Source: a virus
Taxonomy: Duplodnaviria > Heunggongvirae > Uroviricota > Caudoviricetes
Reading direction: 5' to 3' (one strand)
Length of the DNA: 20,784 bases
Virus record (IMG/VR): IMGVR_UViG_2585427760_000005
Shown: positions 1 to 17,718 of the stretch, piece by piece
Position numbering within the stretch: the first letter of the stretch is position 1
Layout of the letters: every line of letters starts with the position of its first letter
The notes under the pieces: model-generated
Databases searched by the model: none
What the model saw: the letters and a program-made list of their open reading frames with translations, nothing else
Told to the model about the DNA's origin: nothing
Made by a program: the position numbers and the translations under genes

Positions 1-245
1 CGGAAAATCGTGTTGAGGCCAACGCCCATAATGCGGGCGGTTGCCCGGCATCCAACGCCATTCATGGCCATATCAATGATTTTCTGGTGCGTACCGGGTT
101 GAGAAGCGGTGTAAGTGAACTGCAGTTGCCATGTTTTACGGCAGTGAGAGCAGAGATAGCGCTGATGTCCGGCAGTGCTTTTGCCGTTACGCACCACCCC
201 GTCAGTAGCTGAACAGGAGGGACAGCTGATAGAAACAGAAGCCAC
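1..245 (-). CDS. insA: IS1 InsA (transposition regulator), GTG start at 245-243, 3' end lies outside the window
   Basis: Minus-strand frame from the GTG at 243-245 reads (M)[22 protein letters not shown]...[11 protein letters not shown], the InsA sequence. The track ORF 62..274 is in a different frame and is not InsA. Confidence 0.8.
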
Positions 246-300
246 TGGAGCACCTCAAAAACACCATCATACACTAAATCAGTAAGTTGGCAGCATCACC
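1..300 (-). mobile_element. IS1 insertion sequence, left end (partial, truncated by window start); terminal inverted repeat ends at 300
   Basis: Reverse complement of 1-300 reads GGTGATGCTGCCAACTTACTGATTTAGTGTATGATGGTGTTTTTGAGGTGCTCCAGTGGCTTCTG..., which matches the IS1 left inverted repeat and insA region as I recall it, with one substitution noticed. Confidence 0.9.
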
Positions 301-526
301 AATTACGGGTGTTAGATTTGAAACGGCAGGATGTACGAAATGCTATAGCTGTAGCTGAAAATGCGGAAACGTTATTCAGTAGTGGGCTTGCCAATGACTA
401 TTAAGATCCTAAGATAAATTGAATATAAAATGGCCTTTTATAAATTGAAAGGCCAGAGTTATAAAGAATGTTTTTATATACTGATAAGCGGTTCCACTAG
501 TTAACTTAAATAAGTAGGTGATGGCT

Positions 527-2065
527 ATGAATTTAGGATTTTTTTTTGGTGCTGGTGCAGAAATTGGTTATGGTTTACCAAGTGGAGGCAAATTTGCCAT
601 TGATCTTTTTAGACAAGATCCAAGTCAGTATAAAACTGAGCTCCGCCAACAACTGCGATTAGTGGATTCACGCTCACCTTACGCCAATGATTGGCTACCT
701 CAGGGGTATGCTGATAAAAGCATTTATGCTTTTGGACGTAACGAGTTTTCCAGTATTATTGAATCATCTATCGAATATAAACGTGAAGAAATAATTCGCC
801 GTCTAAATCGTTTTGATCAAGAGTGTGATGATGCCCTATTAACTCTAGGAATTGATAAGGCCATATTAGAAAATTTATTTTCAGAGTTAACAGGACATGT
901 CATTGGTGAGCGTCTGTATACACATGATATTCGTCTTAACGAGTTACTAGCCAGAGATGTTAGGTTATTCGAGTCTGAATATTACTCTGCTATGTTGGAC
1001 GTAGTACGAGAATCAGATAACAATGATGATTTAAAAAGGTACGTCATATCATTTTTACAATTATTGGTCGGTGCACACGGACAATCTCTTGTTCAACGCC
1101 TAAACCAAGAGTTATTTGAGGCTGCACCGGATGATTTACCCATCTTCGATGATATTACCGGTATGTTCCGTCTGGAGTTTAATCGCATTGGTTCGACAGC
1201 TTTGGAACTATTGCTGGAAGAAAATAGAAATTTCAATATTGATGAGGATGCAACAGCTCTTACACTTTTCTGTGCTATAGCCCAAAAAGTATTAGAGAAT
1301 CTGTTCACTACAGTACTCGACTACCAGAAATTGATAGATGACCATTTCCGATATCTCTTCTCACCTTCCACAGAATGGGCTAAATTTACTCGGATGGTTA
1401 TTTTCCTCAAGATCGCACGCGATTATATTAGTTCCCAGGCACCATCTATCGAAGATCTTCCCGATCATGGCTATTATCATGACTTAGCTACATTTGATGG
1501 TGATCTAACAATTTCAGCCATTGGTACGGCTAATTATAACAGCCTTCTGGCAGAGGTTTTCCGTGGTATGAATATAGAATTACCACAAATTATTCACCTG
1601 AACGGCAGTGTACACGACTATTATAACCCTTATAAAAATGCGGTTATTACTTGTGAAAATCCAGATAACGTAGACCAACGTCAGATTCATGTTCCATTCA
1701 TGCTGACGCAAAGCGGTCTTAAGCCTTTAACATCAGTAACTATGTCAAGACGATACGTTAGTCTTTTTGATGCTTATGCTGAATCTGATGCTATTGTTGT
1801 TGTAGGTTTTGGATTTAATAAAGATGATAGCCATATTAATGGACTTTTCCGTGAACTGGTCGAAAATAAAGGACGGAAATTAATTCTTATTTCGAGGCGT
1901 GTGGATGGAAGTGTTGAAGAACAGAAACGGCGGTTGCGAAACAAACTGCGTATTTCGCATGAGTTTAACCATTTGCTAATAGTAATTCCAGTAGATGATC
2001 TCACAAGGTGTCAAGGTGACCGACTATGGTTAGAGCAAGTTGTTGATACTTTGAACGAGGGATAA
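527..2065 (+). CDS. Hypothetical 512-aa protein with SIR2-like (sirtuin-fold, NAD-binding) signature motifs; candidate single-gene defense NADase
   Basis: Long ORF. AGGTG Shine-Dalgarno at 515-519 favours the ATG at 527 over the track start at 518. N-terminal FFFGAGAEIGYGLPSG resembles the SIR2/ThsA GAGxS...G.P motif, and C-terminal VVVGFGFNKDDSHINGLF resembles the SIR2_2 G[FY]S[FL]xD motif. The gene is AT-rich compared with the prophage genes. Function is inferred from motifs only. Confidence 0.45.
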   Translation: MNLGFFFGAGAEIGYGLPSGGKFAIDLFRQDPSQYKTELRQQLRLVDSRSPYANDWLPQGYADKSIYAFGRNEFSSIIESSIEYKREEIIRRLNRFDQECDDALLTLGIDKAILENLFSELTGHVIGERLYTHDIRLNELLARDVRLFESEYYSAMLDVVRESDNNDDLKRYVISFLQLLVGAHGQSLVQRLNQELFEAAPDDLPIFDDITGMFRLEFNRIGSTALELLLEENRNFNIDEDATALTLFCAIAQKVLENLFTTVLDYQKLIDDHFRYLFSPSTEWAKFTRMVIFLKIARDYISSQAPSIEDLPDHGYYHDLATFDGDLTISAIGTANYNSLLAEVFRGMNIELPQIIHLNGSVHDYYNPYKNAVITCENPDNVDQRQIHVPFMLTQSGLKPLTSVTMSRRYVSLFDAYAESDAIVVVGFGFNKDDSHINGLFRELVENKGRKLILISRRVDGSVEEQKRRLRNKLRISHEFNHLLIVIPVDDLTRCQGDRLWLEQVVDTLNEG

Positions 2066-2116
2066 AGCAGCTGATGATGGTGCTATAACCATTATGGTTT
2101 CTATTAATACTCGCCA

Positions 2117-2139
2117 GCCCTTATCTCTCTGATAAGGGC
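2117..2139. terminator. Hairpin between convergent genes (9-bp stem GCCCTTATC/GATAAGGGC, 5-nt loop); putative bidirectional terminator
   Basis: Perfect inverted repeat lying between the 3' ends of the 527..2065 (+) and 2155..2778 (-) genes. No clear T-tract. Confidence 0.4.
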
Positions 2140-2154
2140 CCTAATTAATGCTAG

Positions 2155-2778
2155 TTAATTATTACTACACCCAAACGATCTATAACCGTCATCAAAGTTC
2201 TTGCTTTTCACTTTGGTGAGATAATCAATTCGATTCAGTAAATCGTCGGGATAAATATCATTAAGAATATCATCACGATTCAGGGTATATTTACCATTAG
2301 AAGGATACTGTACTAGGTGCTGTCCCTCTTCGGGAGTTATACTTAATGCGCTGCACCATGCCGAGGTGATCATAGTTCTTAACGTATCTTCATCAAGATT
2401 GAAATCCCCTAAGTGGTAGTAAGCATCCTTGTTCAGAAACAGAAATACGTGAAAATGACGCTTACCATTCTGGGTAAATTCCCTCACCCACGCATAGCGG
2501 AGCGTATTCGGGTGTACCCGTTTACCTTCTTTACGCTTGCGCTGTTCATCTGCTGCCAGTTTGGCTTTCAGTGAATTGGTAAATCTTGATATAGATCCTG
2601 AATCAGTATTAGCGATACAGGAAATAGTATCACCATTATCCAGCATAACCGGGTCATGCAGATCCACCCGTATTGCCAGTGTACGTCCGTGTTCTTTAAC
2701 AGATTTTGTAATAACATCGATAATCCTTTCTTTGTATGATTTAACATGACTGCCATACTCGCTATCGTAGATATTCAT
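2155..2778 (-). CDS. YagK/YfjJ-family protein (CP4-type prophage-island protein of unknown function)
   Basis: 207-aa ORF with a GGGGTG RBS 8 nt upstream. It sits downstream of the alpA/yfjI-like genes as in E. coli CP4-57, and its size matches YagK-like members. Family assignment is by synteny and recollection. Confidence 0.55.
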   Translation of the reverse strand: MNIYDSEYGSHVKSYKERIIDVITKSVKEHGRTLAIRVDLHDPVMLDNGDTISCIANTDSGSISRFTNSLKAKLAADEQRKRKEGKRVHPNTLRYAWVREFTQNGKRHFHVFLFLNKDAYYHLGDFNLDEDTLRTMITSAWCSALSITPEEGQHLVQYPSNGKYTLNRDDILNDIYPDDLLNRIDYLTKVKSKNFDDGYRSFGCSNN

Positions 2779-3002
2779 AATAATTCACCCCTCGATGGAT
2801 AACAGTCATCGCATTACTGGCTATGGCCTACTAGTGATATATATACAGGCATGGTTAATTGCAATATAATAACTATCCGACACTGAATTTTAGAAAAATA
2901 GTAGCCACAGCCTACGATGACTGATTGAAAGTTACTCTTTAATTAGTTGTAATGAAGATAGGTTAATAAAACAATTATTGCGTCCTATCTTTGTTCTGTT
3001 CG

Positions 3003-4415
3003 TTATATAAGAATATCAACAGGTTGTATGAAAATGGTTTTCCCTATCTTCTCCGCCCGTATTTTCTTTTGCGAATAAAGTGTACTGAGAAGCTCATTCG
3101 CTTTGCTCCGATTCCTGAACCGGTTCGGACCATATTGCAAGATGGTTGTCTTCCTGATATATGGCACCACACACCGGTAGCAATAATCTTTTATCCACGA
3201 ATAAAGTTCATCTGCTTCTGAACTAACCAACAGCAACGTCTGGGGTTTAGAGAAAATTCTCACATACTCATCCACATACCAGGCGCTTATCTCTACTGCG
3301 GCTTCTACGGCACTGAGGGGTATATCCCCTTCATCACCATTAAATTTATGCAGCAGAGCGGCAATCCTTGCCATATTTTCCGCCATTTTAGAGGCGTAAT
3401 CCTTAAAGCCAGACAGGAAGCCAATCAACCCCATTTCTGACTCGACCTTGTTATAAAATTCGATCCAGTTCTTTTCGGCTTCTGCAGAGAAACGTAGGCA
3501 CTGACGCGCATTTTCATCATTTCTGACAATGCTCTCGTTAACGATCTCCATCAATCGTTTATGAAATACCGGTAGATGCTCGCTTGATATAACCGGGCTG
3601 GTAATTTGTCTGTAACCCTGTGTTGAACTAGGCTGACACATCAAACACCGCGCGAAGAATCCGATCCCTTTCGCTGTATCGCCTTTACGCTCCAGATACC
3701 CTTTTTTGAACACATCAGGCTGAACCATCAACGACAGTGTCATTCTGGCGTCTTTGATTAATTTATCTGGCTCGCTTTTTCTTTCCACAGTAAACATTGC
3801 GCCATCCCACATTTTATTGATGAAAGGCAGTTCATTCAGCGCATAGCCGTTAAAAATGGTACCAGCTTCATCAGACATAAGCCCGATGGACCGCCAACAA
3901 CCACTGAGATAGTCTTTTATCGCCGCTGGTGTGGCATCATTGAATATCTGCCTGAACCTGACCGGTGCTTTCGGGTTCGCCGACAGCAGCGTTTTCAGCC
4001 GTTCATTCGTTGTGGAGTGATCTTTGTTACGGCGAATATCTGATTTCAGTTTTGATATCAGGGCTTTCTTTTCAATGTTAAAAGTCGTTTCCTCATTCCG
4101 CCAGATAATTAAATCTTGGGTATATTTTTCAAAGCATGCTTCTTCCAGTTGATACAATGGCTTCATTAGCAGTTTGTCCACCGTGCTTTTGCGTTCACCA
4201 GAATCCGCCAGTGTCAGTAAAAAAAGTGATACTGGGCTGCGCAGATTATTCAGTCGGCACACATCAATCCGGTTCTGGCAGGCAAGCGAAATAACCCCCA
4301 ACACCGATGCAGCAATCAAAGCCTGGGGTGCCTGCGTATGCTGTTCCACTTCATAAACCGCATTTCTGATGATCTGCGGGAAGACATGTACAGGGAAAGG
4401 ACGACCACACGACAT
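3003..4415 (-). CDS. yfjI: YfjI-like DUF3987-domain protein (primase/replication-associated protein of integrative islands)
   Basis: 470-aa ORF with a GAGAGG RBS, immediately downstream of alpA on the same strand. Size and position match E. coli YfjI (469 aa) of CP4-57. Confidence 0.65.
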   Translation of the reverse strand: MSCGRPFPVHVFPQIIRNAVYEVEQHTQAPQALIAASVLGVISLACQNRIDVCRLNNLRSPVSLFLLTLADSGERKSTVDKLLMKPLYQLEEACFEKYTQDLIIWRNEETTFNIEKKALISKLKSDIRRNKDHSTTNERLKTLLSANPKAPVRFRQIFNDATPAAIKDYLSGCWRSIGLMSDEAGTIFNGYALNELPFINKMWDGAMFTVERKSEPDKLIKDARMTLSLMVQPDVFKKGYLERKGDTAKGIGFFARCLMCQPSSTQGYRQITSPVISSEHLPVFHKRLMEIVNESIVRNDENARQCLRFSAEAEKNWIEFYNKVESEMGLIGFLSGFKDYASKMAENMARIAALLHKFNGDEGDIPLSAVEAAVEISAWYVDEYVRIFSKPQTLLLVSSEADELYSWIKDYCYRCVVPYIRKTTILQYGPNRFRNRSKANELLSTLYSQKKIRAEKIGKTIFIQPVDILI

Positions 4416-4545
4416 AGATACCTCTCATTCTATTAATTTAATAAATAATTCAGCGAAATGGCTATTCTGCTATTAATAGCGGAAATAGCAGGATGACTAC
4501 CGACAATCCGATGACAGCAATTGAGTATGAATTCATGTAGCATCC

Positions 4546-4758
4546 TCAAATAAGTTTGCTGCGTTGCGATAGCCATTCTTCAATCTCTGATTCAACCCAT
4601 CCAACAGATTTCACTCCGAGCATTCGCTTTTTGGGGAAGGAAGCATCGTAACGTGGTGATTTGGGGTTCAACCAATCGTAGATTGTTGCTCGTGCCATAC
4701 CAGTTTTTTGGATAACAGCAGGTAAGCGGAGTATCCTAACGGTTGATGGATTATTCAT
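4546..4758 (-). CDS. alpA: AlpA-family transcriptional regulator / excisionase-like small DNA-binding protein
   Basis: 70-aa product MNNPSTVRILRLPAVIQKTGMARATIYDWLNPKSPRYDASFPKKRMLGVKSVGWVESEIEEWL... is near-identical in pattern to E. coli AlpA (70 aa) as I recall it. AGAGG RBS upstream. Confidence 0.9.
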   Translation of the reverse strand: MNNPSTVRILRLPAVIQKTGMARATIYDWLNPKSPRYDASFPKKRMLGVKSVGWVESEIEEWLSQRSKLI

Positions 4759-4883
4759 GCTTGATTGCCTCTTATTAGTTCATTTTGGTTGTAGAAAGAT
4801 TAGCGGCAAGCATCAATGCAAAAAATCCGTGTACCAAAAAAACATTTTTTACAACACTTAACTAATTGATATTTGGTGTATTT

Positions 4884-5762
4884 ATGTTGTCAGCGATTGA
4901 GTTTTGCGAAGAAATTAGTCAAAAATCGGATTGGCTTGCTGGGCATATGGTCGAATGTGATTGGGACATATATGTTGATCTGCTCAGCGAAAGGTATCCC
5001 GTGATACAGAAGGAACTAAGCGAGATGCGAGATCAATTCTGGAATTCTGATAAGGTAGGAACACGTGTGATTTTGTACAGTGATCCATCTCGTAAGGAGT
5101 ATAAATATTGTACTGTTGACGGAGTGGAGCAATTAAAAGAAGAATATACAGAAGTATATGATCCAGCTCAGGAATGCTGGAAACAGTTAAAATCACGTAT
5201 TTTCAGGGAAACGTTTTGTCATCTTATTCAGGATGATTTTTTAATTAATGATGTGTTTAAGTCACATCTATTTTTTGCCTCAATGTCTTATCAATGGGCA
5301 AAATCAGTTATGTCGGAGAATGAATGTGTCGCTATTAAAGCGTTCATTAAGTCAGCTGAATTATTTGATAGATGTATTGGTATGTCATGGTTTCATGTTT
5401 CTGTATGTACCCAAAAAAAATTATCACATGTTAGAGCTAAGGCCGGAAAACAAGGTGGGAACAGTAAATCAGAAGTATATCGAATAATTCAAGATAAGCT
5501 TGTTTATTTGATCAATAACTCCGTACCTGAAGGTGGGTGGAAAAGTAAAGCAGCTGCGGTGAATGACCTCATTGACCCCTTATGGAAATTTGTCGAAGAG
5601 TCAAATTTTGAAATTAATAATCAAAGTAAAAAATATCGGATATCAACAATGAGCCCTGATGCATTGGCAGATACCATTATAAAAAACTGGTCAAGAAATA
5701 TTGAGAGTATCAAATTGGCTTTCGATAATACGGTTACTAGAAAAAAGAAAACCAAAGGGTAA
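4884..5762 (+). CDS. Hypothetical protein in the yfjH position (between integrase and alpA, divergent from alpA); possible island regulator
   Basis: ORF of about 293 aa from the ATG at 4884 (the track starts at a TTG at 4866). AT-rich with no recognisable motif. Position is equivalent to yfjH in CP4-57 and to the repressor slot of PICI-like islands. Confidence 0.5.
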   Translation: MLSAIEFCEEISQKSDWLAGHMVECDWDIYVDLLSERYPVIQKELSEMRDQFWNSDKVGTRVILYSDPSRKEYKYCTVDGVEQLKEEYTEVYDPAQECWKQLKSRIFRETFCHLIQDDFLINDVFKSHLFFASMSYQWAKSVMSENECVAIKAFIKSAELFDRCIGMSWFHVSVCTQKKLSHVRAKAGKQGGNSKSEVYRIIQDKLVYLINNSVPEGGWKSKAAAVNDLIDPLWKFVEESNFEINNQSKKYRISTMSPDALADTIIKNWSRNIESIKLAFDNTVTRKKKTKG

Positions 5763-5820
5763 AATTCCGTATTACCTATAGGTGAGTTATCAGCACCCAT
5801 AATGGGTGCTGATAAAGGAT

Positions 5821-7062
5821 TCATCCTACAAGACGTATTCCCCTAACCCCACTATTCACGATACTGCCGCTATCTGCTGCTTTAACAAAATCAGCCCACC
5901 ACTGCATCATCGGTCGTCGTTGCTCAAGATAGTCACTTCGATTGTAAGCGCGACGTACCTCATTCTTATCTACATGAGCAAGTGCAGCCTCAATAACATC
6001 AGGCGGAAATCCTTCCTCATTGAGTGCCGTACTGGCAATAGAACGTAAGCCGTGTGAAACGAGTACGCCTCCTAAACCAGCACGCTTAAGGGCTGCATTT
6101 ACTGTCTGGCTGTTCATCGGCTGGGTAGGCTTAATGCGACTGGGAAAGATAAATTCTCGACCACCGCTGAGAGACTTCATTATTTCCAGAATAGCGAGAG
6201 CTCCATCAGATAATGGAACCGTATGCTCCCGATTCATCTTCATTCGAGCAGCTGGAATTTTCCATTCGCTAGCATCGAAATCGATCTCATCCCATCGAGC
6301 CTCAGCAGCTTCGGCAGGGCGGGTGATGGTGAGAAGCTGCCACATGAACAGGCATCGTGTGGACAGGCTGATACTTGCCGTACGCATAGTCTGCATTAGC
6401 TGTGGAAGTTGACCTGGGTGGATGCTTGGCATGTTTTTCTTTTGCGGTTTCTCGAATGCTTTCCCGATGTTTACGCTGGGAACCGCATCAATCAGGCCTG
6501 TGTTCTGCGCATAAATCATGACTTCGTTAATACGCTGACAAAGGCGGCGGACTGTCTCTAATGCACCTCTGGCCTGAACCGGATGAACTGCTTTAACCAA
6601 AGTATGAGCCTTAATCTCAGTGACACTGATATCACCGATTGCCGGGAGAACATCCCTCTCAAGCGAGCGCCAGATATCGTCGGCATAGTCCTCTGTTACG
6701 CTGGCTTTCTTCACATTCCACCAACGCTCGGCAACTAACCGGAAAGTGTTGGTTTTGGCCTCTTGAGAATTTCTCACCTGTTCTTTCTGATGTTCCTGAG
6801 GATCAATGTCTTTCGCCAACAAAGCTCGAGATTCAGCTCTGAGTTTACGCGCATCAGAAAGGGAGACGGCTGGATAGGCTCCGAAGCTCTGCTTGGTTCG
6901 CTGCTTGGTCAGAGGTCGATAGTAACGGAACTGCCAGAGCTTACTACCGCTGGACTTGATTAGCAGAGTAAGCCCGTCACCATCATACAGCTGGTAATCG
7001 GCATCTTTAGGTTTGGCGGCTTTGATTTCCGTATCGGTTAACGGCTTGGTTTTTCTTGCCAT
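5821..7062 (-). CDS. intA: Tyrosine integrase, P4/CP4-57 IntA type (DUF4102 N-terminus plus phage-integrase catalytic domain)
   Basis: 413 aa from MARKTKPLTDTEIKAAKPKD, with a GGAG RBS about 8 nt upstream of the ATG at 7062. The C-terminal region has the R...HxxR...Y catalytic pattern (HGLRSIAST...AHVD...RRAY). Lies next to the ssrA att fragment as intA does in K-12. The track start at 7098 falls inside an upstream hairpin and is less likely. Confidence 0.85.
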   Translation of the reverse strand: MARKTKPLTDTEIKAAKPKDADYQLYDGDGLTLLIKSSGSKLWQFRYYRPLTKQRTKQSFGAYPAVSLSDARKLRAESRALLAKDIDPQEHQKEQVRNSQEAKTNTFRLVAERWWNVKKASVTEDYADDIWRSLERDVLPAIGDISVTEIKAHTLVKAVHPVQARGALETVRRLCQRINEVMIYAQNTGLIDAVPSVNIGKAFEKPQKKNMPSIHPGQLPQLMQTMRTASISLSTRCLFMWQLLTITRPAEAAEARWDEIDFDASEWKIPAARMKMNREHTVPLSDGALAILEIMKSLSGGREFIFPSRIKPTQPMNSQTVNAALKRAGLGGVLVSHGLRSIASTALNEEGFPPDVIEAALAHVDKNEVRRAYNRSDYLEQRRPMMQWWADFVKAADSGSIVNSGVRGIRLVG

Positions 7063-7185
7063 GGGGAGTCTCCATGCGTTTAGGCCCAACGAAAACAATA
7101 GAGCTTTTCGTTGGGCCTATCAATGGGCCTAAAAGGTTCGGATTTAATTAGTTCTCTTCGGACTTCGCGGGACAAATTCAGGGCA

Positions 7186-7219
7186 CAAAAAAGCCCGCAG
7201 GGCTTGCGCCGTGCGGGCT
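7186..7219 (-). terminator. Rho-independent terminator downstream of the ssrA 3' end (8-bp GC-rich stem plus T-tract on the minus strand)
   Basis: Stem AGCCCGCA (7192-7199) pairs with TGCGGGCT (7212-7219). On the minus strand it is followed by TTTTT (complement of 7186-7191). Confidence 0.6.
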
Positions 7220-7265
7220 CTTAGGACTTCATCGGATGACTCTGGTAATCACCGATGGAGAATTT

Positions 7266-7310
7266 TGGTGGAGCTGGCGGGAGTTGAACCCGCGTCCGAA
7301 ATTCCTACAT
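7266..7310 (-). other. ssrA: 45-bp fragment identical to the 3' end of ssrA (tmRNA); attachment-site core duplicate, not a complete tmRNA gene
   Basis: Minus-strand sequence ATGTAGGAATTTCGGACGCGGGTTCAACTCCCGCCAGCTCCACCA matches the tmRNA 3' end (T-arm and CCA). Sequence 5' of it (beyond 7310) has no tmRNA similarity. Confidence 0.8.
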
Positions 7311-7426
7311 ACCATTTTTATACTAATAAAAGCATACATTTACTTTTAAAATCATCACCTTATTGTTTTTTGTGTTTGTCGGGTTTTATGTGATTTTAAG
7401 TCCTTGCCGCCAAAATGCCGCCATTA

Positions 7427-8618
7427 TTACTTATCCTCGATGGCGTCATACTCAAGCAAGTTATCCATACACTTCTCGAGTTTGTAGAAGTCGGTGAGGG
7501 GATAGAGGTGAACAATACTATCGTCAAAATTCTTGATCCCTGACAGGCGCTCAGTGCGTCTCAAAAACCTTGACGCTGACTTTACTTTGTCTCCCTCATC
7601 CGGCTCGCATGTGTATTCTAGTGTTTTGAGTACTTGCCAAGATACGGGAGGAGTTAGCTTAAACATTTTAATTAATTTTGGACAAAAATCCTTTGAGATA
7701 GTTTGTTGGTAAGTAACTTTTGGTGGGAGTACAACGTTGATTGACTTGTCTCCATCATTTGTTTTAACCATTTTAGTTGATCTGTAAGCGATACCAACAA
7801 TGTTAGAATTTCCTCGGCGGCTGATCCATTGCATTAATAAATTAGGGATGATGTATTCCTGAGTAAACGATGTGCTGCTATTTTTTTTTTCTAAAGTTAC
7901 AAGCATAAATTAAAGGCATCAAACAAATATATGACATTTTTGTAAGATATGGCATTTCGTCGTCATTAACTATGCCATAAAATCGTGAGTATAGAATTTC
8001 GGAAGTGAAGTCTAATATTTTAGAATCCTTTTCATTTGATGAGTAAGAGGATATATATAATTTATCAAAGTCTGGCTTATCCATTTCCAGCCAGCAGACA
8101 TACAAGGAAGAGCCAAGATATAAGCAGGGTAAGCCTGCAACAGAGTATCTTTGCGCATTGACTAGATGCCGCATAGAGAAAGGAATATGAAACATCTCTT
8201 TTCTATCTTTTATAGATGAGTCGGATTTTCTGACCCGGAAAAGAGGCTTGGATTCGTTGCATATCTTATTAAGTGGCGTGGATATGTGGTGAATATAACG
8301 AAATGTTGCATTGTCAGAAAATGTACTGTCAAAAATGTCATACGCTGATTTTATGTCACCAGATAAAAATTTTTCCAAGGAAAGTACTATGCCAAAATAT
8401 ATCTCACTTATTTTTTCTAAACGTCGGCCAATTCTCTTGGATAATTCATTGTCATTGTTTTCAGCATAGTCATTTATAATGTTGAAGTAGATTTGACATT
8501 TATTCTTGAAATCACTGATTATGTCGGACTCTACCGTAAATGGTAAGTTTAATCTTTTTTCTTTGACTGTAAGTGAAAATATTTTATTTAAGCCGTCAGA
8601 TAAACTCTCGCTTCCCAT
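7427..8618 (-). pseudogene. AT-rich gene with RES-domain-like motif (candidate NAD-targeting toxin/defense effector), split into 246-aa and 159-aa ORFs by a +1 frameshift in an A10 homopolymer (T10 at 7881-7890 on the + strand)
   Basis: ORFs 7878..8618 and 7427..7906 overlap by 29 nt in adjacent frames. ORF1 ends ...NFRKKK* inside the A10 run, and a run of A9 would read ...RKKNSSTSF... straight into ORF2 for a roughly 400-aa product. The motif FRVRKSD...RYSVAGLPCLYLGSSLYVCWLEM resembles the RES-domain core. An AAGGA RBS overlaps the stop codon of the upstream integrase. Confidence 0.45.
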
Positions 8619-8627
8619 TTTTTATCC

Positions 8628-9650
8628 TTACGAATAGTTTAATGAATGGAGTGGGTTCTTTGTCACCGCATCCTCAAGATGATCTGGTGCAAAATGGGCA
8701 TATATCATCGTCATTTTTATATCTGCATGGCCTAGGATATCGCGCAGCACAAGGATGTTTCCACCGTTCATCATAAAGTGGCTGGCGAAAGTATGTCGCA
8801 GTACGTGTGTGCATTGGCCCTCAGGTAAATCGATGCCTGCCCGTTTTACCGCACGCTCAAAGGCTTTTCTGCATGGCGTGAATAACTTCCCTCGATTCTT
8901 TGGTAGTTCGTCATACAGAGCCTGCGATATAGGTACGGTCCGGTTTTTCTTACCTTTGGTTTTGGTGTACGTGATTCGGTATTTTGATAACTGATGGCCC
9001 TGCAGGTTTTCGGCTTCACTCCAGCGGGCGCCGGTCGCTAAGCAAATTTTTGCAATCATCAGCAGGCTGGGGCTTTGAGAATTGGCGCAGGCATCCAGCA
9101 GGCGCTTAATTTCTTCCGGAGCAAGGAACGCCAGTTCACCTTCTGCGATCTTGAATGTTGGCAGTCCGGCGAGCGGGTTGGGTGCGGACCAGTGGCCCAG
9201 CTTTTTCAGCGTGCCAAAAACTGATGATAGGTTTCGCTGTTCCAGGTTTACCGTGCGGGGCTTAACCGGTGACATAAGCACGCCATCTTCATTTTTGACC
9301 TCACCTTTTAGGCGCGCTTCACGGTATTTAGTAAAGTCTCCAGCAGTCAGCTCTGAGGCAATGGGATCACCCAGTCCATTACAAATAATGCTGAGTTTCG
9401 CCATCAGGCGCTTAGGGTCCGCAAGAGTCTGCCCGTAAAGTGAATGCCATTGTTGAATCACTTCTGACAACTGACGCCTATCATCCTTTTCACCTAACCA
9501 TGGCTTTTTGTTCACTTCATCCATTGTGAAGTTTTCAAATGCTATAGCTTCGCCTTTCGTCGCAAATTGCTTGCGTACGCGTTTGCCATCGCGCCCGCTA
9601 GGGTAGCACTCGCACAACCATTTTCCGTTTGGCTGTTTTCTTATAGTCAT
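8628..9650 (-). CDS. int: Tyrosine integrase, P2/186-family phage type
   Basis: 340-aa product. N-terminus MTIRKQPNGKWLCECYPSGRDGKRVRKQFATKGEAIAFE and C-terminal ...ATGARWSEA...HVLRHTFASHFMMNGGNILVLRDILGHADIKMTMIYAHF follow the P2 Int pattern as recalled (P2 Int is 337 aa). Confidence 0.85.
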   Translation of the reverse strand: MTIRKQPNGKWLCECYPSGRDGKRVRKQFATKGEAIAFENFTMDEVNKKPWLGEKDDRRQLSEVIQQWHSLYGQTLADPKRLMAKLSIICNGLGDPIASELTAGDFTKYREARLKGEVKNEDGVLMSPVKPRTVNLEQRNLSSVFGTLKKLGHWSAPNPLAGLPTFKIAEGELAFLAPEEIKRLLDACANSQSPSLLMIAKICLATGARWSEAENLQGHQLSKYRITYTKTKGKKNRTVPISQALYDELPKNRGKLFTPCRKAFERAVKRAGIDLPEGQCTHVLRHTFASHFMMNGGNILVLRDILGHADIKMTMIYAHFAPDHLEDAVTKNPLHSLNYS

Positions 9651-9652
9651 GT

Positions 9653-10285
9653 TTAGAGGCTCTTGATCACTTTTACAGCACGTCCGATAGCTTCAATATC
9701 ATCTACTGAGCATTCAAACGAAGATTCATCCTGATGGACCGCTAATTTGTTTCCTGGAAGCCGTGTTAATTTCACGATGCTTTTAACCCCATCAATATCA
9801 ACGAGCCATAGTCCATTTGTAATCTGTTTCAGTGATTGATCGACTACATAACTTTCATGAGCATTGTTGACGAATAAACAGTGAACAGGTTCATTCGGGA
9901 GAATGCTGTGATCGAGGTGAATATCCTCATTATCAGTTAAGCAGCCATTTTCTAGCGTTACTTGCTTGATCGATGGCGCGACAAGCTTTGCAAGAGGTCG
10001 AATTGTAGGTGAGGTCTCATTTTGAGGTTTTTTTACAGCCTCGTTTTGAGCGTACATCTCACCATGGCCAGTAGCCAACCACAGTAAAGAAACCCCCGTT
10101 TCGAGCGCGCACTGAATTACCCAGTCAGCAGGGAAGCTATCACGTAACAGTCTGTTTGACATAGTGCTTTTTGAAACGCCAAGCTGCTCACTTAGAGCCT
10201 GCTTTGTCTTAAGCCCATAAGCCTTTTGCAGCCGATCGATAGCTTCTCTACCCCCTGAATCGGCACCCATTGAAATACTCGCCAT
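9653..10285 (-). CDS. cI: Phage CI-type immunity repressor (186 CI-like, HTH N-terminal domain)
   Basis: A GGAG RBS 7 nt upstream supports a start at 10285 (MASISMGADSGG...). The segment AYGLKTKQALSEQLGVSKSTMSNRL...CALETGVSLLWLATGHGE is HTH-like and resembles 186 CI. Located between int and a divergent apl-like gene. The track start at 10375 would run through the operator region. Confidence 0.7.
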   Translation of the reverse strand: MASISMGADSGGREAIDRLQKAYGLKTKQALSEQLGVSKSTMSNRLLRDSFPADWVIQCALETGVSLLWLATGHGEMYAQNEAVKKPQNETSPTIRPLAKLVAPSIKQVTLENGCLTDNEDIHLDHSILPNEPVHCLFVNNAHESYVVDQSLKQITNGLWLVDIDGVKSIVKLTRLPGNKLAVHQDESSFECSVDDIEAIGRAVKVIKSL

Positions 10286-10406
10286 TGAAAAACTCCGTTT
10301 GACAACCTTGAATCGGGATCGTAATGTTGCGTTGACTCTTGAATTGAGGTCTTGAGAGTCGACATAAAACGACATAAAACGAATCTAAACCGAGAGATAC
10401 TGCACT
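10286..10406. promoter_or_regulatory. Lysis-lysogeny switch region between divergent cI and apl-like genes; contains an exact 10-bp tandem direct repeat GACATAAAAC x2 (10361-10380)
   Basis: Intergenic region between the divergent repressor and early operon, with the tandem repeat visible in sequence. Promoter and operator positions were not resolved. Confidence 0.4.
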
Positions 10407-10652
10407 ATGAGCACTGAGATTTCAATTCGTGTACCAAAAGTGATAGCGACGCCAGCCGAATTTGCTGAATGGGAAGGCTATTCCCGTGGTTCGGTTTATC
10501 AGATGATTCATAACGGTAAACTGGCTAACTACATTGAAAAGAAAGAAAAAAACAAAGGCCGTGTATTCATCCTTTACCTTAAGTACAAAAAGGAGCAAGC
10601 GCGTAAAAACATGGACCAATCAGCCTTTAACTACAACGTAGTTGTCGGTTAG
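10407..10652 (+). CDS. Apl/Cox-like small excisionase-regulator (first gene of the early lytic operon)
   Basis: 81-aa ORF divergent from cI, basic C-terminal half, in the position of 186 apl / P2 cox. Confidence 0.55.
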   Translation: MSTEISIRVPKVIATPAEFAEWEGYSRGSVYQMIHNGKLANYIEKKEKNKGRVFILYLKYKKEQARKNMDQSAFNYNVVVG

Positions 10653-10687
10653 TAAGTTCAATTATGAGAACTTTCTAAGGGGGTTAC

Positions 10688-11197
10688 ATGTTTGATTATA
10701 AGATTTCCAAACATCCGCATTTTGACGACGCTTGCCGCGCTTTTGCGTTGCGTCACAACATGGCGAAGCTGGCAACCAGCGCCGGAATGAACGTCCAGAC
10801 TCTGCGCAACAAGTTGAACCCGGACCAGCCGCACCAACTGACGCCGCCGGAAATCTGGCTGCTGACTGATATCACTGAGGATTCCACGCTGGTTGATGGT
10901 TTCCTGGCCCAGATTCACTGCCTGCCGTGTGTGCCGCTGAATGAAGTGGCAAAAGAAAAAATGCCGCAGTACGTCCTCAAAGCCACTGCCGAGATCGGCC
11001 GTGTTGCTGCAAGTGCGGTTTCAGGTGTTCAACTGAACGCGACCACCCGCCGCCAGGTTGTTGAAAGCGTCAATTCTGTTACCCGTCTAATGGCTCTTAC
11101 CGCTATTTCACTGCAGGCGCGGTTACAAGCTAACCCGGCAATGGCCAGTGTTGTCGATACCGTGACGGGACTTGGCTCTTCGTTTGGGCTGAGCTGA
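10688..11197 (+). CDS. cII: CII-like regulatory protein (phage 186 CII type)
   Basis: 169-aa ORF with an AAGGGGG RBS, immediately after the apl-like gene. 186 CII is 169 aa as I recall. Call rests on synteny and size. Confidence 0.6.
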   Translation: MFDYKISKHPHFDDACRAFALRHNMAKLATSAGMNVQTLRNKLNPDQPHQLTPPEIWLLTDITEDSTLVDGFLAQIHCLPCVPLNEVAKEKMPQYVLKATAEIGRVAASAVSGVQLNATTRRQVVESVNSVTRLMALTAISLQARLQANPAMASVVDTVTGLGSSFGLS

Positions 11198-11198
11198 G

Positions 11199-11405
11199 GT
11201 GTATATGCTGAACAATGAACCATCTTTTGCATCACTGCTTGTTAAGCAAAGCCCGGCCCCGCACTACGGTCACGGCTGGATCTCTGGAACGGATGGCAAG
11301 CGCTGGCATCCATGCCGCTCGCAGGATGCGCTGCTGGCTGACCTGTCCACATCAAAACAGGGGAAACCATGGCTATTGAAGGCGATGCTGCGACTGTTCC
11401 GCTAA
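11199..11405 (+). CDS. Hypothetical small early protein (fil/dhr region of 186-like phages)
   Basis: 68-aa ORF with a GAGGTG RBS. Confidence 0.45.
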   Translation: MYMLNNEPSFASLLVKQSPAPHYGHGWISGTDGKRWHPCRSQDALLADLSTSKQGKPWLLKAMLRLFR

Positions 11406-11710
11406 GTGCTGGCCTCCGCCTTAATGGGTTAAACCACATCGCGGAATTAAGGGCGAAAGTGTTTGGCTTAAATACTGATTCAGAACTAGGGCGCTTTATT
11501 AGCGATATGCGGGACCAACGGGATATTAACCATGAGCAGAATAAACGCGCACTAGCCGCAATATTCTTTATGGCAAAAATTCCGGCGGAACGTCATAGCG
11601 TCAATGTTAGTGAGCTGACGACTGACGAAAAGCGGGAGCTGATTAAAGCAATGAACCATTTCCGTACAGTGGTGAGCTTATTTCCAACTCGGCTAGCCAT
11701 GCCGAATTAA
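11369..11710 (+). CDS. Hypothetical early protein
   Basis: 113-aa ORF overlapping the previous ORF by 37 nt in another frame. Start is uncertain. Confidence 0.4.
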   Translation: MAIEGDAATVPLSAGLRLNGLNHIAELRAKVFGLNTDSELGRFISDMRDQRDINHEQNKRALAAIFFMAKIPAERHSVNVSELTTDEKRELIKAMNHFRTVVSLFPTRLAMPN

Positions 11711-11777
11711 CCAACCACAGAAATTAAAGGCGTAAACCCGCCGGGCATTCCTTTGCTCAAATTCAGGAGAACGAACG

Positions 11778-12011
11778 ATGCGAAATATTGAAACCCGAAT
11801 CACCAAAAGCGGCCCAGATGATGCTGGCCTTAACCAGCTGCTGACGGATGCGCGTATGGAAGAACGCCGCGCACGTGCTGCTGCAATGGCTGCCCGCCTC
11901 GATAGCCTGGCTAGCCGTATTACTTCCCGTCAGCTTAACCATGTTGAGGCGGCAGAGCTGCTGCGTGTCGCAGCTGAAAACATCCAGAACGAAGCGCAGG
12001 AGATCCACTGA
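11778..12011 (+). CDS. Hypothetical early protein (Ala/Arg-rich, probably helical)
   Basis: 77-aa ORF with an AGGAG RBS. Its stop overlaps the next start (TGATG). Confidence 0.5.
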   Translation: MRNIETRITKSGPDDAGLNQLLTDARMEERRARAAAMAARLDSLASRITSRQLNHVEAAELLRVAAENIQNEAQEIH

Positions 12012-12238
12012 TGGCTGATTCTATGGACCTTGTACAGCAGCGCGTTGAAGAAGAACGCCAGTGCCATATCCACCACGCCCGCAGCCGAAAGGCTGGGGCT
12101 TCTTCTCTTGAGTGCGAGAGCTGCGAAATTGTCATTCCGGCAGAACGCCGTGCTGCAGTTCCGGGCTGTGATCTTTGCGTAACCTGCCAGGAAATTGCAG
12201 AGCTGAAAGGCAAGCATTACGTAGGGGGTGCTGTATGA
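12011..12238 (+). CDS. TraR/DksA-family C4 zinc-finger protein
   Basis: 75-aa product with CxxC...CxxC (CESCEIVIPAERRAAVPGCDLCVTCQE), the pattern of phage TraR-like proteins. Confidence 0.6.
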   Translation: MADSMDLVQQRVEEERQCHIHHARSRKAGASSLECESCEIVIPAERRAAVPGCDLCVTCQEIAELKGKHYVGGAV

Positions 12239-12519
12239 CTACCGAGAAACTGACTAATCCGCTGACTGATAGCGAATTATCGCGACTGATTTGGGGCCTG
12301 AAAGCGGAAGGGTTTCACCCGCGCCTATTGGCTGGCTTAGTAGAGCTGCAGCAGCGCCGTCAGGCCAATGCAGAGATTGATATGGCACCAATAAAAATTC
12401 CTCCTGCCGTATTCGATTTGATTTATCAGGAATGCGAGGGGTTTGTAGATTGTCCAGCCAATCCTCAAGTGATTTGGGAAGCCTGCCGTGCAGCGATGCT
12501 GAAAGGCGGTGCTGAATGA
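12235..12519 (+). CDS. Hypothetical early protein
   Basis: ATG at 12235 overlaps the upstream stop (ATGA). About 94 aa. The track start at 12175 lies inside the previous gene. Confidence 0.5.
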
Positions 12520-12815
12520 ATATCAAAGCCCATACCTTAAAAATTGCACCGAAACACCTTAATGATGTTATGGCGGGGAAAAAAAAAGCTGAATTAAGAC
12601 GGGATGATGATCGCGGTTATAAAGCCGGTGATGTTCTTGTTTTGTGTGAATGGAAACATGGCAAATATACCGGGCGCGAATGGACGGCTGTAATCACTCA
12701 TATCCTGCCAGTTTGCGACGTTATTAATAATGTTGATGGCTGGGTGATGCTCTCTATTCGTTCACTGAATCCAATTGATGCAATGTTCTATATGCTTTCA
12801 GGAGGTGCTGCATGA
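12516..12815 (+). CDS. DUF3850/ASCH-like small protein
   Basis: 99-aa ORF, ATGA-coupled to its neighbours. The pattern [24 protein letters not shown]...GDVLVLCEW resembles DUF3850 (ASCH-fold) proteins. Confidence 0.45.
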
Positions 12816-13657
12816 GCACCATCCTGAAATGGGCTGGCAATAAAACTGCCATCATGCCGGAATTGAAAAAACATCTGCCAGCAGGCCAGCGCCTTGTTGA
12901 ACCTTTCGCGGGTTCGTGCGCTGTCATGATGGCGACAGACTATCCTCATTATCTTGTCGCAGATGTTAATCCTGATCTGATAAATCTGTATCAAGCAATT
13001 AAAGATGACGTTAACGGATTTGCTCACTTGGCTGAGCGGGTTTTTTCTAAGTTCACAACGGAAGAAGCCTATTATAAATGCCGTCAGTATTTTAATACTG
13101 CGCCTTTGGATTACATGGACAAGGCGGCTTATTTTCTTTTCCTTAATCGCCATTGTTATCGCGGGTTATGCCGTTATAACCAGCGCGGCCTGTTTAACGT
13201 CCCGTACGGTAATTACAAAAAACCTTATCTGCCCGTTAATGAAATACGTGCATTTGCCGAAAAGGCAAAGCGTGCCACCTTCATTTGCGCCAACTATGAG
13301 GAAACATTGGCAATGCTGCAGCCGGGGGATGTTATCTACTGCGACCCTCCGTATGACGGTACATTTTCCACTTACCACACTGACGGATTTACTGAGGATG
13401 ATCAGTATCATCTGGCGTCTATCCTTGAACGTCGCTCATCAGAAGGTCATCCGGTCATCGTGTCCAATAGCGACACATCCCTGACCCGTTCACTTTATCG
13501 TAATTTTACCCACCATCGCATCACTGCAAAACGCAGCATGGGCGTGGCTGCCGGTGAAGGTAAATCTGCAGCTGAAATCATCGCGACGAAATCAGCTGTT
13601 TGCTTCGGTGTAGATCTTGCCAGCTGTACAAACCGTTATGTTGAGGTGCGCGTATGA
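12812..13657 (+). CDS. dam: DNA adenine methyltransferase, Dam family (orphan, phage-encoded)
   Basis: 281 aa with [48 protein letters not shown] and the catalytic DPPY motif ([10 protein letters not shown]), collinear with E. coli Dam. Confidence 0.88.
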
Positions 13658-17387: not shown

Positions 17388-17465
17388 TTTTACTGACGAT
17401 TTGATCGCCATCAGAACTATCTACTTGAAACTAAAAAAGAGTTTTACAATTCGAAATAACAGTTA

Positions 17466-17705: not shown

Positions 17706-17718
17706 CAACAGGAACGTT

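Follow-up and report, generated by a model that had tools for sequence, protein, structure and literature searches.

The DNA analysed here (20,784 nucleotides, hereafter the window) carries a gene for a protein with a genuine SIR2/Rossmann NAD-binding fold, which an all-alpha domain splits in the predicted structure; the family of the gene usually resides inside restriction-modification (R-M) operons. We read the gene, tentatively and a little short of calling this probable, as an uncharacterised R-M-nested immunity gene that would use NAD+ through a non-canonical chemistry. SIR2 domains are among the commonest effectors of bacterial immunity, and to our knowledge every characterised immunity SIR2 destroys NAD+ by means of an Asn/His dyad. 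The present family keeps the fold and the NAD loops, has systematically replaced the His, holds a large novel domain inside the fold and travels with R-M operons across phyla.

The gene and its island

The window runs from within IS1, through a helicase remnant and the SIR2-like gene, into a CP4-57-like island:

1..300, minus strand: terminal 300 bp of IS1, within which the window begins; the outer end is base 300 (…GGCAGCATCACC)
301..404, plus strand: helicase remnant, the last 33 codons and stop of an 856-aa ResIII/YagJ helicase from a type III-like R-M pair
405..526, plus strand: native intergenic region of 122 bp, with a 10-bp-stem hairpin (431-455) and a Shine-Dalgarno AGGTGA (514-519)
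527..2065, plus strand: SIR2-fold coding sequence of 512 aa, intact; a widespread allele in E. coli is 100% identical to it
2155..7310, minus strand: backbone of the CP4-57-like island, with the island end at about 7310
2155-2778, minus strand: yfjJ-like gene (YfjJ/Gp2 family), convergent with the SIR2-like gene
3003-4415, minus strand: yfjI
between yfjI and the yfjH-like gene in the backbone listing: alpA
4866-5762, plus strand: yfjH-like gene
5821-7098, minus strand: intA

The reading frame opens at ATG 527 and closes with the stop at 2065. An in-frame GTG at 518 falls inside the Shine-Dalgarno, and the homologues all begin at the Met equivalent to the ATG. GC content is 0.37-0.39 over window positions 501-2000; elsewhere in the window it is 0.50-0.60. 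The hairpin upstream of the gene folds as RNA at -26.2 kcal/mol (z -2.7 against shuffles); it is no canonical intrinsic terminator, and a consensus terminator scan called none in 250-2300. The sole promoter-like site that a consensus scan returned upstream of the gene, at 388-415, is weak.

The original prediction had described a single, AT-rich gene for a 512-aa product, lying as cargo of a CP4-57-like island with IS1 on one side and a convergent island gene on the other, and these points were borne out. It had also placed the gene where CP4-57 of K-12 carries yfjK/yfjL, and this agrees with our comparison: the yfjJ-yfjP slot of the K-12 island holds yfjK/yfjL (now abpB/abpA) together with yfjM and rnlAB, and the SIR2-like gene occupies this defence slot. 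As far as base 7310, the window is colinear with two ssrA-integrated islands, L017 and L021. A search of the window for tRNA and tmRNA genes was negative; the ssrA gene is located past a tandem prophage.

The IS1 end is 100% identical to an IS1 copy in L021 and 94.7% identical to IS1 of MS 115-1, and the colinear match to IS1-free islands begins at base 301, immediately beyond it. The translation of the remnant (LRVLDLKRQDVRNAIAVAENAETLFSSGLANDY, then the stop) is identical to the helicase C-terminus in L017, while the remaining helicase gene and a 708-aa type III methyltransferase are absent at the IS1 junction of the window. In the cassette, this methyltransferase matches the PADLOC model MTase_III with an E of 7e-294, and the helicase matches REase_III weakly. 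An IS1-associated deletion took the methyltransferase and all of the helicase except 33 codons and orphaned the SIR2-like gene, which is single in the window because IS1 removed its upstream neighbours. Elsewhere in E. coli, the identical gene is third in a methyltransferase (type III)-helicase-SIR2-like cassette at 18 of the 19 places tallied (8 shown and 11 collapsed as similar), in the yfjJ-yfjP slot. The earlier description of the gene as standalone does not survive this cassette, the 33 helicase codons kept in the window and the nesting in type I operons described below.

Restriction-modification context and distribution

A word-indexed search returned 606 matches at 57-91% identity over full length, from many gammaproteobacterial genera, and the cluster representatives at E up to 1e-3 number 751. 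Family members are about 500-520 aa long. They are present in 131 of about 100,000 species genomes, spread over Proteobacteria, Bacteroidota, Akkermansia and Bacillota, and on plasmids too; 6 of 5426 complete E. coli genomes carry the gene, and many genomes and plasmids hold a member that stands alone. No homologue was found among 50,697 phage records. This distribution is patchy, and the family is horizontally transferred. Our search of the literature on SIR2 with type I R-M, on embedded genes and on the lactococcal plasmidome found no paper or experiment on the family.

The family's usual home is inside R-M operons. Enterobacteriaceae members stand behind a type III methyltransferase and a helicase, in the slot of a CP4-57-like island that takes up defence cargo. 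In Acinetobacter, Vibrio, Azotobacter and Gallaecimonas its members occur as the X of same-strand hsdM-hsdS-X-hsdR-ygjP operons, with gaps of 2-23 nt, and on a Lactococcus plasmid a homologue of 34% identity follows an orphan hsdS at a distance of 45 bp. An R-M gene is found within 5 kb in 33 of 80 loci (23/33 in the clade of at least 49% identity, 10/47 in the distant clade), and 11 loci are strictly flanked by R-M genes. Nesting is a property of the family that the window copy, its R-M genes deleted, has lost. The genes embedded alongside are the PADLOC candidates AbiZ-like, PDC-S05 and PDC-S26, and RhuM and PDDEXK_4 also share the slot. That a gene lies embedded in an R-M operon is an established predictor of a role in defence (bioRxiv 10.1101/2024.01.29.577857; for TgvAB, bioRxiv 10.1101/2024.04.04.588119).

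Beyond R-M genes, no recurrent partner gene was seen among the 80 loci, the apparent extra clusters being antisense shadow ORFs of hsdR. By Pfam and PADLOC, the immediate neighbours in loci without R-M genes are heterogeneous. In the close clade such loci have Hjc-like, DUF6602, ABC-3C CTD10 and PIN_12 neighbours. Most loci of the distant Bacillota clade have ordinary, non-recurrent neighbours (TPR, TetR, oxidoreductases, histidinol dehydrogenase) with no clear defence enrichment, and R-M nesting is therefore not universal.

Fold and altered active site

The AF2 model of the 512-aa product (pLDDT 79.3, pTM 0.75) has a Rossmann-type NAD-binding fold in which strand 2-7 comes before an N-terminal Gly-rich loop, as in solved SIR2 structures, and its nearest structural matches are the defence NADases SIR2-HerA Sir2, KomC and ThsA. 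On this model the SIR2 fold is genuine and is split by an all-alpha domain, for which no structural relative was recognisable among solved structures. The elements discussed below are:

548..562, plus strand: GAGAE, residues 8-12, the Gly-rich NAD pyrophosphate loop, which follows strand beta-1
566..1507, plus strand: insertion domain, all-alpha and about 310 residues long (residues 14-327), separating the first Rossmann strand from the second
1526..1540, plus strand: T334-A-N336-Y337-N338, the equivalent of sirtuin TQNxD, aligned with CobB TQNID
1598..1606, plus strand: L358-N359-G360, at the SIR2 L-H-G position, aligned with CobB H-M-H147-G
1706..1726, plus strand: TQSGLKP, residues 394-400, a family-specific loop at the place of the sirtuin FGE loop, aligned with CobB VVWFGE
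1805..1840, plus strand: GFGFNKDDSHIN, residues 427-438, the equivalent of the sirtuin G-T-S / SIR2_2 GYSxxD NAD-binding loop, within the region matched by Pfam SIR2_2 and PADLOC SIR2

Pfam SIR2_2 (PF13289) matches residues 350-476 only, at 22.5 bits and E 1.3e-4, below its gathering threshold of 24.5 bits; a few homologues carry a precomputed PF13289 match. The SIR2-type models of PADLOC give short, weak matches, the best of them (E 3e-6) being a local match of about 65 residues to Aga_SIR2. There was no full-length significant match to any system or candidate of PADLOC-DB v2.0.0, including PDC-S/PDC-M, HEC and AbiH. Searches of the family profile against all PDB sequences gave no SIR2 match, the hits being chance matches with E above 0.1. 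Membership of the NCBIfam family SIR2_antiphage was rejected (13.7 bits, cut-off 500). The SIR2 relationship is detectable only via the fold and the weak Pfam and PADLOC matches.

The original prediction was supported in part. It had taken two motifs, an N-terminal GAG and a C-terminal one about 420 residues away, for the split halves of a SIR2 signature enclosing a large inserted domain; they are the first and last NAD-binding elements of the SIR2 fold, G8 and G427 are 419 residues apart, and the insert is helical in the model. It had proposed an AlphaFold model with structural comparison, which recovered the SIR2 fold, and a profile search, which had a mixed outcome: SIR2_2 was found, yet below its gathering threshold, and the PDB profile searches brought no SIR2 match.

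Conservation was counted over 47 homologues at 24-84% identity, and for some sites also over the 88 genome or plasmid homologues covering the site or the 222 family members covering LNG. The sequence around the first loop is FFFGAGAEIGYGLPSG (residues 5-20), and that around the last is VVVGFGFNKDDSHINGLF (residues 424-441). G8 and G10 are present in 47/47 and A9, A11 and E12 in 46/47; in the last loop, G427 and F430 are present in 47/47, D434, H436 and N438 in 46/47 and D433 in 44/47. The conservation of both GAGAE and GFGFNKDDSHIN is far above chance. N336 and Y337 are invariant in the 47, and their motif is kept in all 88 covering homologues. At position 338 the 47 sequences carry N (20), T (20), S (4) or H (3), with Asp in none.

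The main departure is at the catalytic His. LNG stands in 46/47 and 88/88 homologues, and among the 222 members the site is x-N-G in 219, LHG in 2 and LSG in 1. As judged from alignment and conservation, Asn N359 stands at the catalytic-His position of SIR2 NADases in essentially all members. Its register is based on an hhalign alignment to CobB, on the two members with LHG at the exact position and on the strand order of the model; the alignment to the single CobB sequence gave a sensible register with a probability of only 0.26%, and serves as support beside motif and conservation. Within the TQSGLKP region, Q395, K399 and P390 are invariant (47/47), and the low pLDDT at residues 396-398 suggests a flexible loop. 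A single Cys lies in the stretch 360-390 and CxxC pairs are absent, so the Zn-binding Cys4 of CobB/Sir2 deacylases is missing.

The family appears, by these comparisons, to have kept the Gly-rich NAD loop, the SIR2 Asn N336 and the C-terminal GFGF/DD loop, and to have lost the catalytic His and the Asp of TQNxD. Because of these two changes, an NAD+ hydrolase mechanism of the ThsA/DSR type cannot be assumed, and the NADase assignment of the original prediction is not supported, given the change at the essential His (Asn in nearly every member) and the missing Asp. The His is essential for NADase activity in SaSir2-HerA, where the H287 mutant is dead (PMC11514289). SirTM carries Gln in place of the His and shows robust ADP-ribosyltransferase activity, which the Q137H substitution abolishes (PMC4518038). 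A protein that binds nucleotides without catalysis would account equally well for the missing His and Asp.

Possible functions and comparison with known systems

According to the reading that we prefer, the SIR2-like gene would be a nested accessory immunity gene whose product binds NAD+ and consumes it, but not through the N/H-dyad hydrolysis that ThsA, DSR2 and SIR2-HerA use. The most likely chemistries would be ADP-ribosyl transfer, as in class M sirtuins, or hydrolysis via Q395, K399 or H436. Activation of the enzyme upon infection may depend on the helical domain, as sensor or autoinhibitory module, and the enzyme may back up the R-M system with which the gene travels. One may speculate, in a more specific form that we consider unlikely as a whole, that the product is an R-M-coupled, second-line SIR2-fold ADP-ribosyltransferase with a novel 310-residue helical sensor, firing upon inhibition or overload of the restriction enzyme encoded with it. 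Its targets would then be phage DNA or RNA, a phage or host protein, or the restriction complex, and it would be a sirtuin counterpart of PrrC.

A classic defence sirtuin, that is, a self-sufficient NAD+ hydrolase acting by abortive infection like DSR1/DSR2, ThsA or the Sir2 of SIR2-HerA, with another residue replacing the His, would be in keeping with the fold and its nearest structures, with the retained NAD-binding loops and dyad Asn, with the defence slot in E. coli and with the members that stand alone; the invariant polar residues H436, D433/D434, Q395 and K399 could supply the base. We nevertheless think this improbable in view of the near-universal Asn, the vanished Asp, the essential role of the equivalent His in SaSir2-HerA (PMC11514289) and the DSR, ThsA and SIR2-HerA models of PADLOC and NCBIfam, none of which gives a noteworthy score. 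The R-M context could also point to a PrrC-type guard, silenced by association with HsdS/HsdM or Mod/helicase and firing when Ocr, ArdA or Stp disables the complex; an orphan copy like that of the window would then be either deregulated or useless. The family occupies prrC's exact hsdS-hsdR slot with tight operon spacing, the hsdS-X adjacency has held from Proteobacteria to Lactococcus plasmids, PrrC itself is reported almost exclusively embedded in type I R-M (bioRxiv 10.1101/2024.01.29.577857), and the MS 115-1 gene was itself truncated by IS1 after loss of its R-M partner. However, the hosts are heterogeneous: there are type I operons of several families, whose HsdM seed scores range between 79 and more than 1000 bits, there is a type III-like pair, and 47/80 loci have no R-M at all. 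One specific protein-protein interface is hard to reconcile with such hosts. The unrelated RhuM, AbiZ-like and PDDEXK_4 genes in the same slot fit generic hitch-hiking, and TgvAB, embedded in a type I operon, acts independently of that operon (bioRxiv 10.1101/2024.04.04.588119), so that a guard, too, seems rather unlikely.

The pocket could also belong to a catalytically dead SIR2-fold sensor or regulator that binds NAD+, ADP-ribose or another nucleotide and, for example, modulates restriction activity or alleviation. With the His changed to Asn and the Asp to N, T or S, two of three hallmark pocket residues have gone while the nucleotide-binding loops remain, and the operon layout indicates co-transcription with R-M genes. 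The invariant polar pocket residues N336, Y337, N359, Q395, K399, D433, D434, H436 and N438 would nevertheless be more usual in an enzyme than in a binder, SirTM shows that catalysis can proceed with an amide in place of the His (PMC4518038), and most Bacillota loci carry the gene with no R-M neighbour; such a role is very unlikely in our judgement. That the gene has no part in immunity at all, whether its product is a sirtuin-like enzyme of housekeeping or metabolism or the gene is a selfish passenger carried by mobile elements, with its R-M placement incidental, strikes us as exceedingly improbable. Many Bacillota loci do have ordinary-looking neighbours. Against this stand the horizontally transferred, patchy occurrence on islands and plasmids in so few species and E. 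coli genomes, a base composition AT-rich relative to the host, the absence of both the Zn-ribbon Cys4 and the deacylase His, the Hjc-like, DUF6602, ABC-3C CTD10 and PIN_12 neighbours of close-clade loci without R-M, and the R-M genes within 5 kb in 33/80 loci, a closeness that by our estimate, not a computed figure, a random gene would rarely reach.

If active, the non-canonical enzyme that we favour would broaden the range of reactions catalysed by defence sirtuins, perhaps to include ADP-ribosyl transfer, and would make a convenient system in which to ask why accessory genes settle in the hsdS-hsdR interval, with co-regulation and the guarding of restriction enzymes as the two explanations. 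The locus also carries a caution for annotation: an apparently standalone cargo gene can be what an IS element has left of a multi-gene cassette.

Among lactococcal single-gene abortive infection systems, AbiH offers no match, since the Pfam and PADLOC AbiH models remain unmatched even at E up to 10. AbiH is reportedly a protein of about 346 aa, said to have been described by Prevots et al. in 1996, and would thus be without the large helical insertion. With the Sir2 of SIR2-HerA (Nezha; PDB 8w9l, 8yhx, 8j4u) the family has in common the Rossmann core, the Gly-rich loop, the conserved Asn and the defence-island setting. It differs in having Asn where SaSir2 has the catalytic H287 (PMC11514289), in an extra all-alpha domain of about 310 residues that resembles no solved structure, in its sequence, for which HMM searches against PDB sequences detect no similarity, and in its surroundings, as no HerA gene adjoins any member in the loci examined. 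More generally, the HerA ATPase, pAgo/APAZ and STAND NTPase that serve as obligate partners or fused modules in SIR2-HerA, SPARSA (SIR2-pAgo) and Avs5 are not recurrent neighbours in the 80 loci. DSR1/DSR2 and ThsA likewise join a SIR2 domain and a non-catalytic region in one polypeptide, the helical insertion being the putative sensor here, and share with the family the order of the GAG, TxNY and G-x-x-x-x-x-D motifs found in Pfam SIR2_2. In contrast to both, the family has LNG instead of LHG and leaves their PADLOC and NCBIfam models unmatched. It differs from ThsA in lacking SLOG and a ThsB/TIR partner (no SLOG or TIR in Pfam or PADLOC, the neighbours being R-M or island genes), and from DSR in lacking a C-terminal DSR-type sensor; its extra domain lies within the SIR2 fold and is not appended to it.

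In active-site terms the family compares with the class M sirtuins (SirTM; PDB 5a3a), which have an amide at the catalytic-His site, keep the Asn and perform ADP-ribosyl transfer instead of deacylation (PMC4518038). SirTM combines its Gln with a conserved Arg192. Here the amide is Asn, not Gln; the macrodomain, GcvH-L and LplA operon partners are not seen; the context is R-M as against oxidative stress; and the insertion domain is different. In genomic position the nearest counterparts are PrrC (the anticodon nuclease of the type Ic locus EcoprrI), TgvAB and the PDC and HEC candidates of PADLOC, all of which share with the family the same-strand nesting between hsdS and hsdR. Fold and chemistry are unrelated, however: where PrrC and TgvAB place an ABC-ATPase-like nuclease or a GmrSD enzyme in that position, the present family places a SIR2 fold.

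The gene, its E. coli cassette and the IS1 deletion

The SIR2-like ORF runs from ATG 527 to a stop codon at 2065 and encodes 512 aa; an alternative start, GTG 518, falls within the Shine-Dalgarno sequence AGGTGA, and homologues all start at the Met equivalent to 527. The GC content of the gene region is 0.37-0.39, versus 0.50-0.60 elsewhere in the window. The original prediction was thus right in calling a real, AT-rich gene, and right on its flanks, which are the first two of these features:

1-300, IS1 end
2155-2778, convergent YfjJ/Gp2-family gene, next after the SIR2-like gene
4866-5762, + strand, island gene of 298 aa in the yfjH position, TTG start as listed

In CP4-57 of K-12 the slot between yfjJ and yfjP holds abpB/abpA (yfjK/yfjL), yfjM and rnlAB, and the placement of the gene at the yfjK/yfjL position is therefore also correct. 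AbpA is annotated there as an anti-bacteriophage protein and RnlAB as a toxin-antitoxin; both have anti-phage functions. The yfjH-position gene had no match in Pfam or PADLOC. In the NCTC assembly GCA_900449015 a second IS1 copy breaks this gene.

The description of a standalone gene did not hold. In E. coli the identical protein normally stands third behind a methyltransferase and a helicase, as seen in 24 contigs that we read, represented by 8 places and 11 more collapsed as similar to those 8. The cassette order, found in 7 of the 8 and in all 11 collapsed places, is a yfjP-like GTPase (- strand), a type III methyltransferase (708 aa), a ResIII/YagJ helicase (856 aa) and the SIR2-like gene (512 aa), followed by yfjJ-like, yfjI, alpA, a hypothetical gene, intA, ssrA and smpB. 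The methyltransferase is a full-length match to PADLOC MTase_III (E 7e-294) and the helicase a weak one to REase_III. Window positions 301-7310 are colinear with intact islands, and 301-404 encode the final 33 helicase residues, identical to those of an IS1-free island (L017). IS1 therefore interrupts the helicase gene, of which only this 3' end survives, and the methyltransferase has been lost. One contig of GCA_900449015 has an identical IS1 junction. The native 122-bp intergenic region is intact, with its Shine-Dalgarno sequence and a hairpin at 431-455 (10-bp stem, z -2.7), making expression of the orphan copy plausible.

In the complete genome of E. coli MS 115-1 (CP146665), base 576 adjoins an IS1 copy distinct from that of the window (94.7% identity; L001, the MS 115-1 locus, 11233-12000). 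Codons 1-16 of the SIR2-like gene, with the GAG motif, are lost there, leaving 467 aa, a hypothetical protein in RefSeq. There are therefore two distinct IS1 junctions, less than about 275 bp apart, in islands that are otherwise 99.9% identical.

The adjacent prophage

Positions 7311-20784 are a P2/186-like prophage adjacent to the CP4-57-like island, apparently in tandem integration at ssrA. An ARAGORN scan of the window gave no tRNA or tmRNA, and ssrA must therefore lie beyond the prophage, whose genes include:

7427-7906, - strand, AT-rich ORF (159 aa) between attachment site and integrase
7878-8618, - strand, AT-rich ORF (246 aa) between attachment site and integrase
8628-9650, - strand, integrase
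9653-10375, - strand, CI
10688-11197, CII
12812-13657, Dam methylase
13654-14973, PAPS-reductase/SspD-like
14970-17387, gpA
18200-19006, + strand, AT-rich ORF (268 aa) in the P2-type cargo position after gpA

The three AT-rich ORFs, all of them in P2-type cargo positions, had no Pfam or PADLOC match and may be uncharacterised prophage cargo. In the variable region after gpA, a 383-aa ORF (19248-20399) corresponds to the N-terminal half of PADLOC PDC-S06 (AAA_13; profile positions 1-334 of 732), and the stretch from about 20400 to 20784 resembles the antisense of a transposase, possibly that of IS5. This would make the ORF the second of the window's defence candidates to be cut by an insertion sequence.

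Fold, family and active site

The similarity to SIR2, predicted from two widely split motifs (residues 5-20, FFFGAGAEIGYGLPSG, and 424-441, VVVGFGFNKDDSHINGLF), is only faintly visible to sequence libraries: Pfam SIR2_2 matched at E 1.3e-4, but over residues 350-476 only and at 22.5 bits, under its gathering score of 24.5. PADLOC gave short, weak matches to generic and Ago-associated SIR2 models (best E 3e-6), and family profiles run against PDB sequences found no SIR2. Membership of NCBIfam SIR2_antiphage was rejected (13.7 bits, where the cut-off is 500). The structural model has the SIR2 fold, interrupted by an inserted helical domain, and matches Sir2Af (13.4), KomC (13.4), ThsA (13.1), SirTM (11.9), Avs5 (10.9) and FAM118B (10.6).

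Together with its homologues the protein forms a coherent family, with members of about 500-520 aa, for which our literature search found no publication. A word-indexed search gave 606 matches, with full-length relatives at 57-91% identity in Vibrio, Acinetobacter, Providencia, Azotobacter, Plesiomonas and other genera; 751 cluster representatives matched at E <= 1e-3, and one-genome-per-species collections held 131 relatives (Gamma- and Alphaproteobacteria, Bacteroidota, Akkermansia, Ignavibacteria, Bacillota). Eleven plasmid records (Enterococcus, Bacillus, Lactococcus, Acinetobacter, Exiguobacterium) carry the family, and the phage records searched held no member. It is rare in E. coli (6 of 5426 complete genomes); the identical 512-aa sequence occurs in 336 index blocks of public assemblies.

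Across 47 aligned members (24-84% identity), G8, G10, P18, Y266, Y317, N336, Y337, G360, P390, Q395, K399, G427, F430 and W501 are invariant, and A9, A11, E12, T334, L358, N359, D433, D434, H436 and N438 are at least 90% conserved. The motifs follow the SIR2 order, with GAGAE corresponding to the sirtuin GAGxS loop, [GA]T-x-N-Y-[NTSH] to TQNxD, L-N-G to L-H-G and G[FY]GFNxDDxHIN to GTS / GYSxxD. Alignment by hhalign to E. coli CobB gave the register TQNID/TANYN, IHMH147GEL/IIHLNGSV and AIGTS/VVGFGF, with negligible statistical support, the target being a single sequence; the strand order of the model is consistent with this register and supports it independently. A second independent support is that 2 of the 222 members covering the His site have LHG at exactly the aligned position, the others having x-N-G (219, of which 215 LNG) or LSG (1). 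All 88 genome or plasmid homologues covering the site have LNG. The natural LHG (P0142, P0199) and LSG (P0106) variants could serve to probe whether His is tolerated or alters activity.

Read in this register, the SIR2 Asn (N336) is kept, the catalytic His is replaced by Asn (N359) and the pocket Asp is lost. SaSir2-HerA has a fully conserved N226/H287 pair, and mutation of H287 abolishes NADase activity (PMC11514289). The family should therefore not be classed as a ThsA/DSR/SIR2-HerA-type NADase, contrary to the original prediction. NAD+ may still be consumed by other chemistry: in class M sirtuins Gln137 replaces His, and these enzymes act not as deacylases but as robust protein ADP-ribosyltransferases, Q137H being inactive (PMC4518038).

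Restriction-modification nesting and proposed function

In Acinetobacter, V. fluvialis, Azotobacter and Gallaecimonas the homologue (X) lies within type I operons of the order hsdS-hsdM-hsdS-[AbiZ-like]-X-[RhuM or PDDEXK_4]-hsdR-ygjP, co-directional with the R-M genes and with gaps of 2-23 nt. The co-embedded genes are the PADLOC candidates AbiZ, PDC-S05 and PDC-S26. A second gene, DUF6161/AbiZ-like, RhuM (PDC-S05) or PDDEXK_4 (PDC-S26), often sits beside X (loci L003, 6742-7977; L009, 9559-10572; L015, 9573-10685), so that the hsdS-hsdR slot acts like a small cargo site for several genes.

In a phmmer survey of 80 species loci seeded with these R-M proteins, an R-M gene lay within 5 kb in 23 of 33 loci at >=49% identity to the window protein and in 10 of 47 below 49% (33 in total), with type I genes strictly on both sides in 11 of the 80, all being lower bounds, as many contigs are short. 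HsdM (21), HsdR (19), HsdS (17) and YgjP (15) were the only recurrent neighbour families. Close-clade loci without R-M genes have Hjc-like, DUF6602, ABC-3C CTD10 and PIN_12 neighbours, and most Bacillota loci have no R-M genes or conserved partner among ordinary-looking neighbours. On the Lactococcus plasmids pAH1-5 and pGR0507-29, a homologue (34% identical, 494 aa, with every family motif including LNG) begins 45 bp past an orphan hsdS (L106 4735-7476; L107 5867-8476). This adjacency on small dairy plasmids repeats that of the proteobacterial type I operons. The family is therefore a self-contained gene, preferentially nested in several kinds of R-M operon.

Nesting in R-M operons has been published as a predictor of defence function; embedded genes are co-oriented with the host system in 96.7% of cases, and PrrC occurs almost only within type I R-M loci (bioRxiv 10.1101/2024.01.29.577857); TgvAB is a further R-M-embedded example (bioRxiv 10.1101/2024.04.04.588119). 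Fold, family, insertion, residue substitutions, R-M nesting and IS1 deletion are established here; for function we infer, tentatively, a nested accessory immunity gene whose SIR2 core would bind NAD+ and use it up through non-canonical chemistry, be it ADP-ribosyl transfer, for which SirTM is a precedent, or hydrolysis via another conserved residue, with the helical domain as a putative sensor or autoinhibitor. The classic NADase originally proposed is unlikely, weakened as it is by the missing catalytic His. A guard of the PrrC type, in physical association with the R-M enzyme, would fit the conserved hsdS adjacency, but the hosts are heterogeneous and many copies are solo, and we give this explanation a similarly low probability. 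That the protein is a non-catalytic nucleotide-binding regulator seems improbable, and that the gene has no part in defence, very improbable indeed. With its unusual active site and new domain, the family is a good experimental lead, but its function is predicted and the window copy is an orphan.

Among known systems, the Sir2 subunits of SIR2-HerA are closest by structure, but the family has no HerA partner; class M sirtuins are closest by active-site logic, but macrodomain and GcvH-L partners are absent. The family differs from known SIR2 systems in having no HerA, pAgo, STAND, SLOG or TIR partner and no catalytic His, and neither AbiH nor any PADLOC candidate model matches it in sequence. 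By genomic logic it is closest to PrrC and other R-M-embedded genes, and by lifestyle to AbiH, a stand-alone sirtuin-like Abi (PMC13064643). We rate the family as a variant of the defence-associated SIR2 fold.
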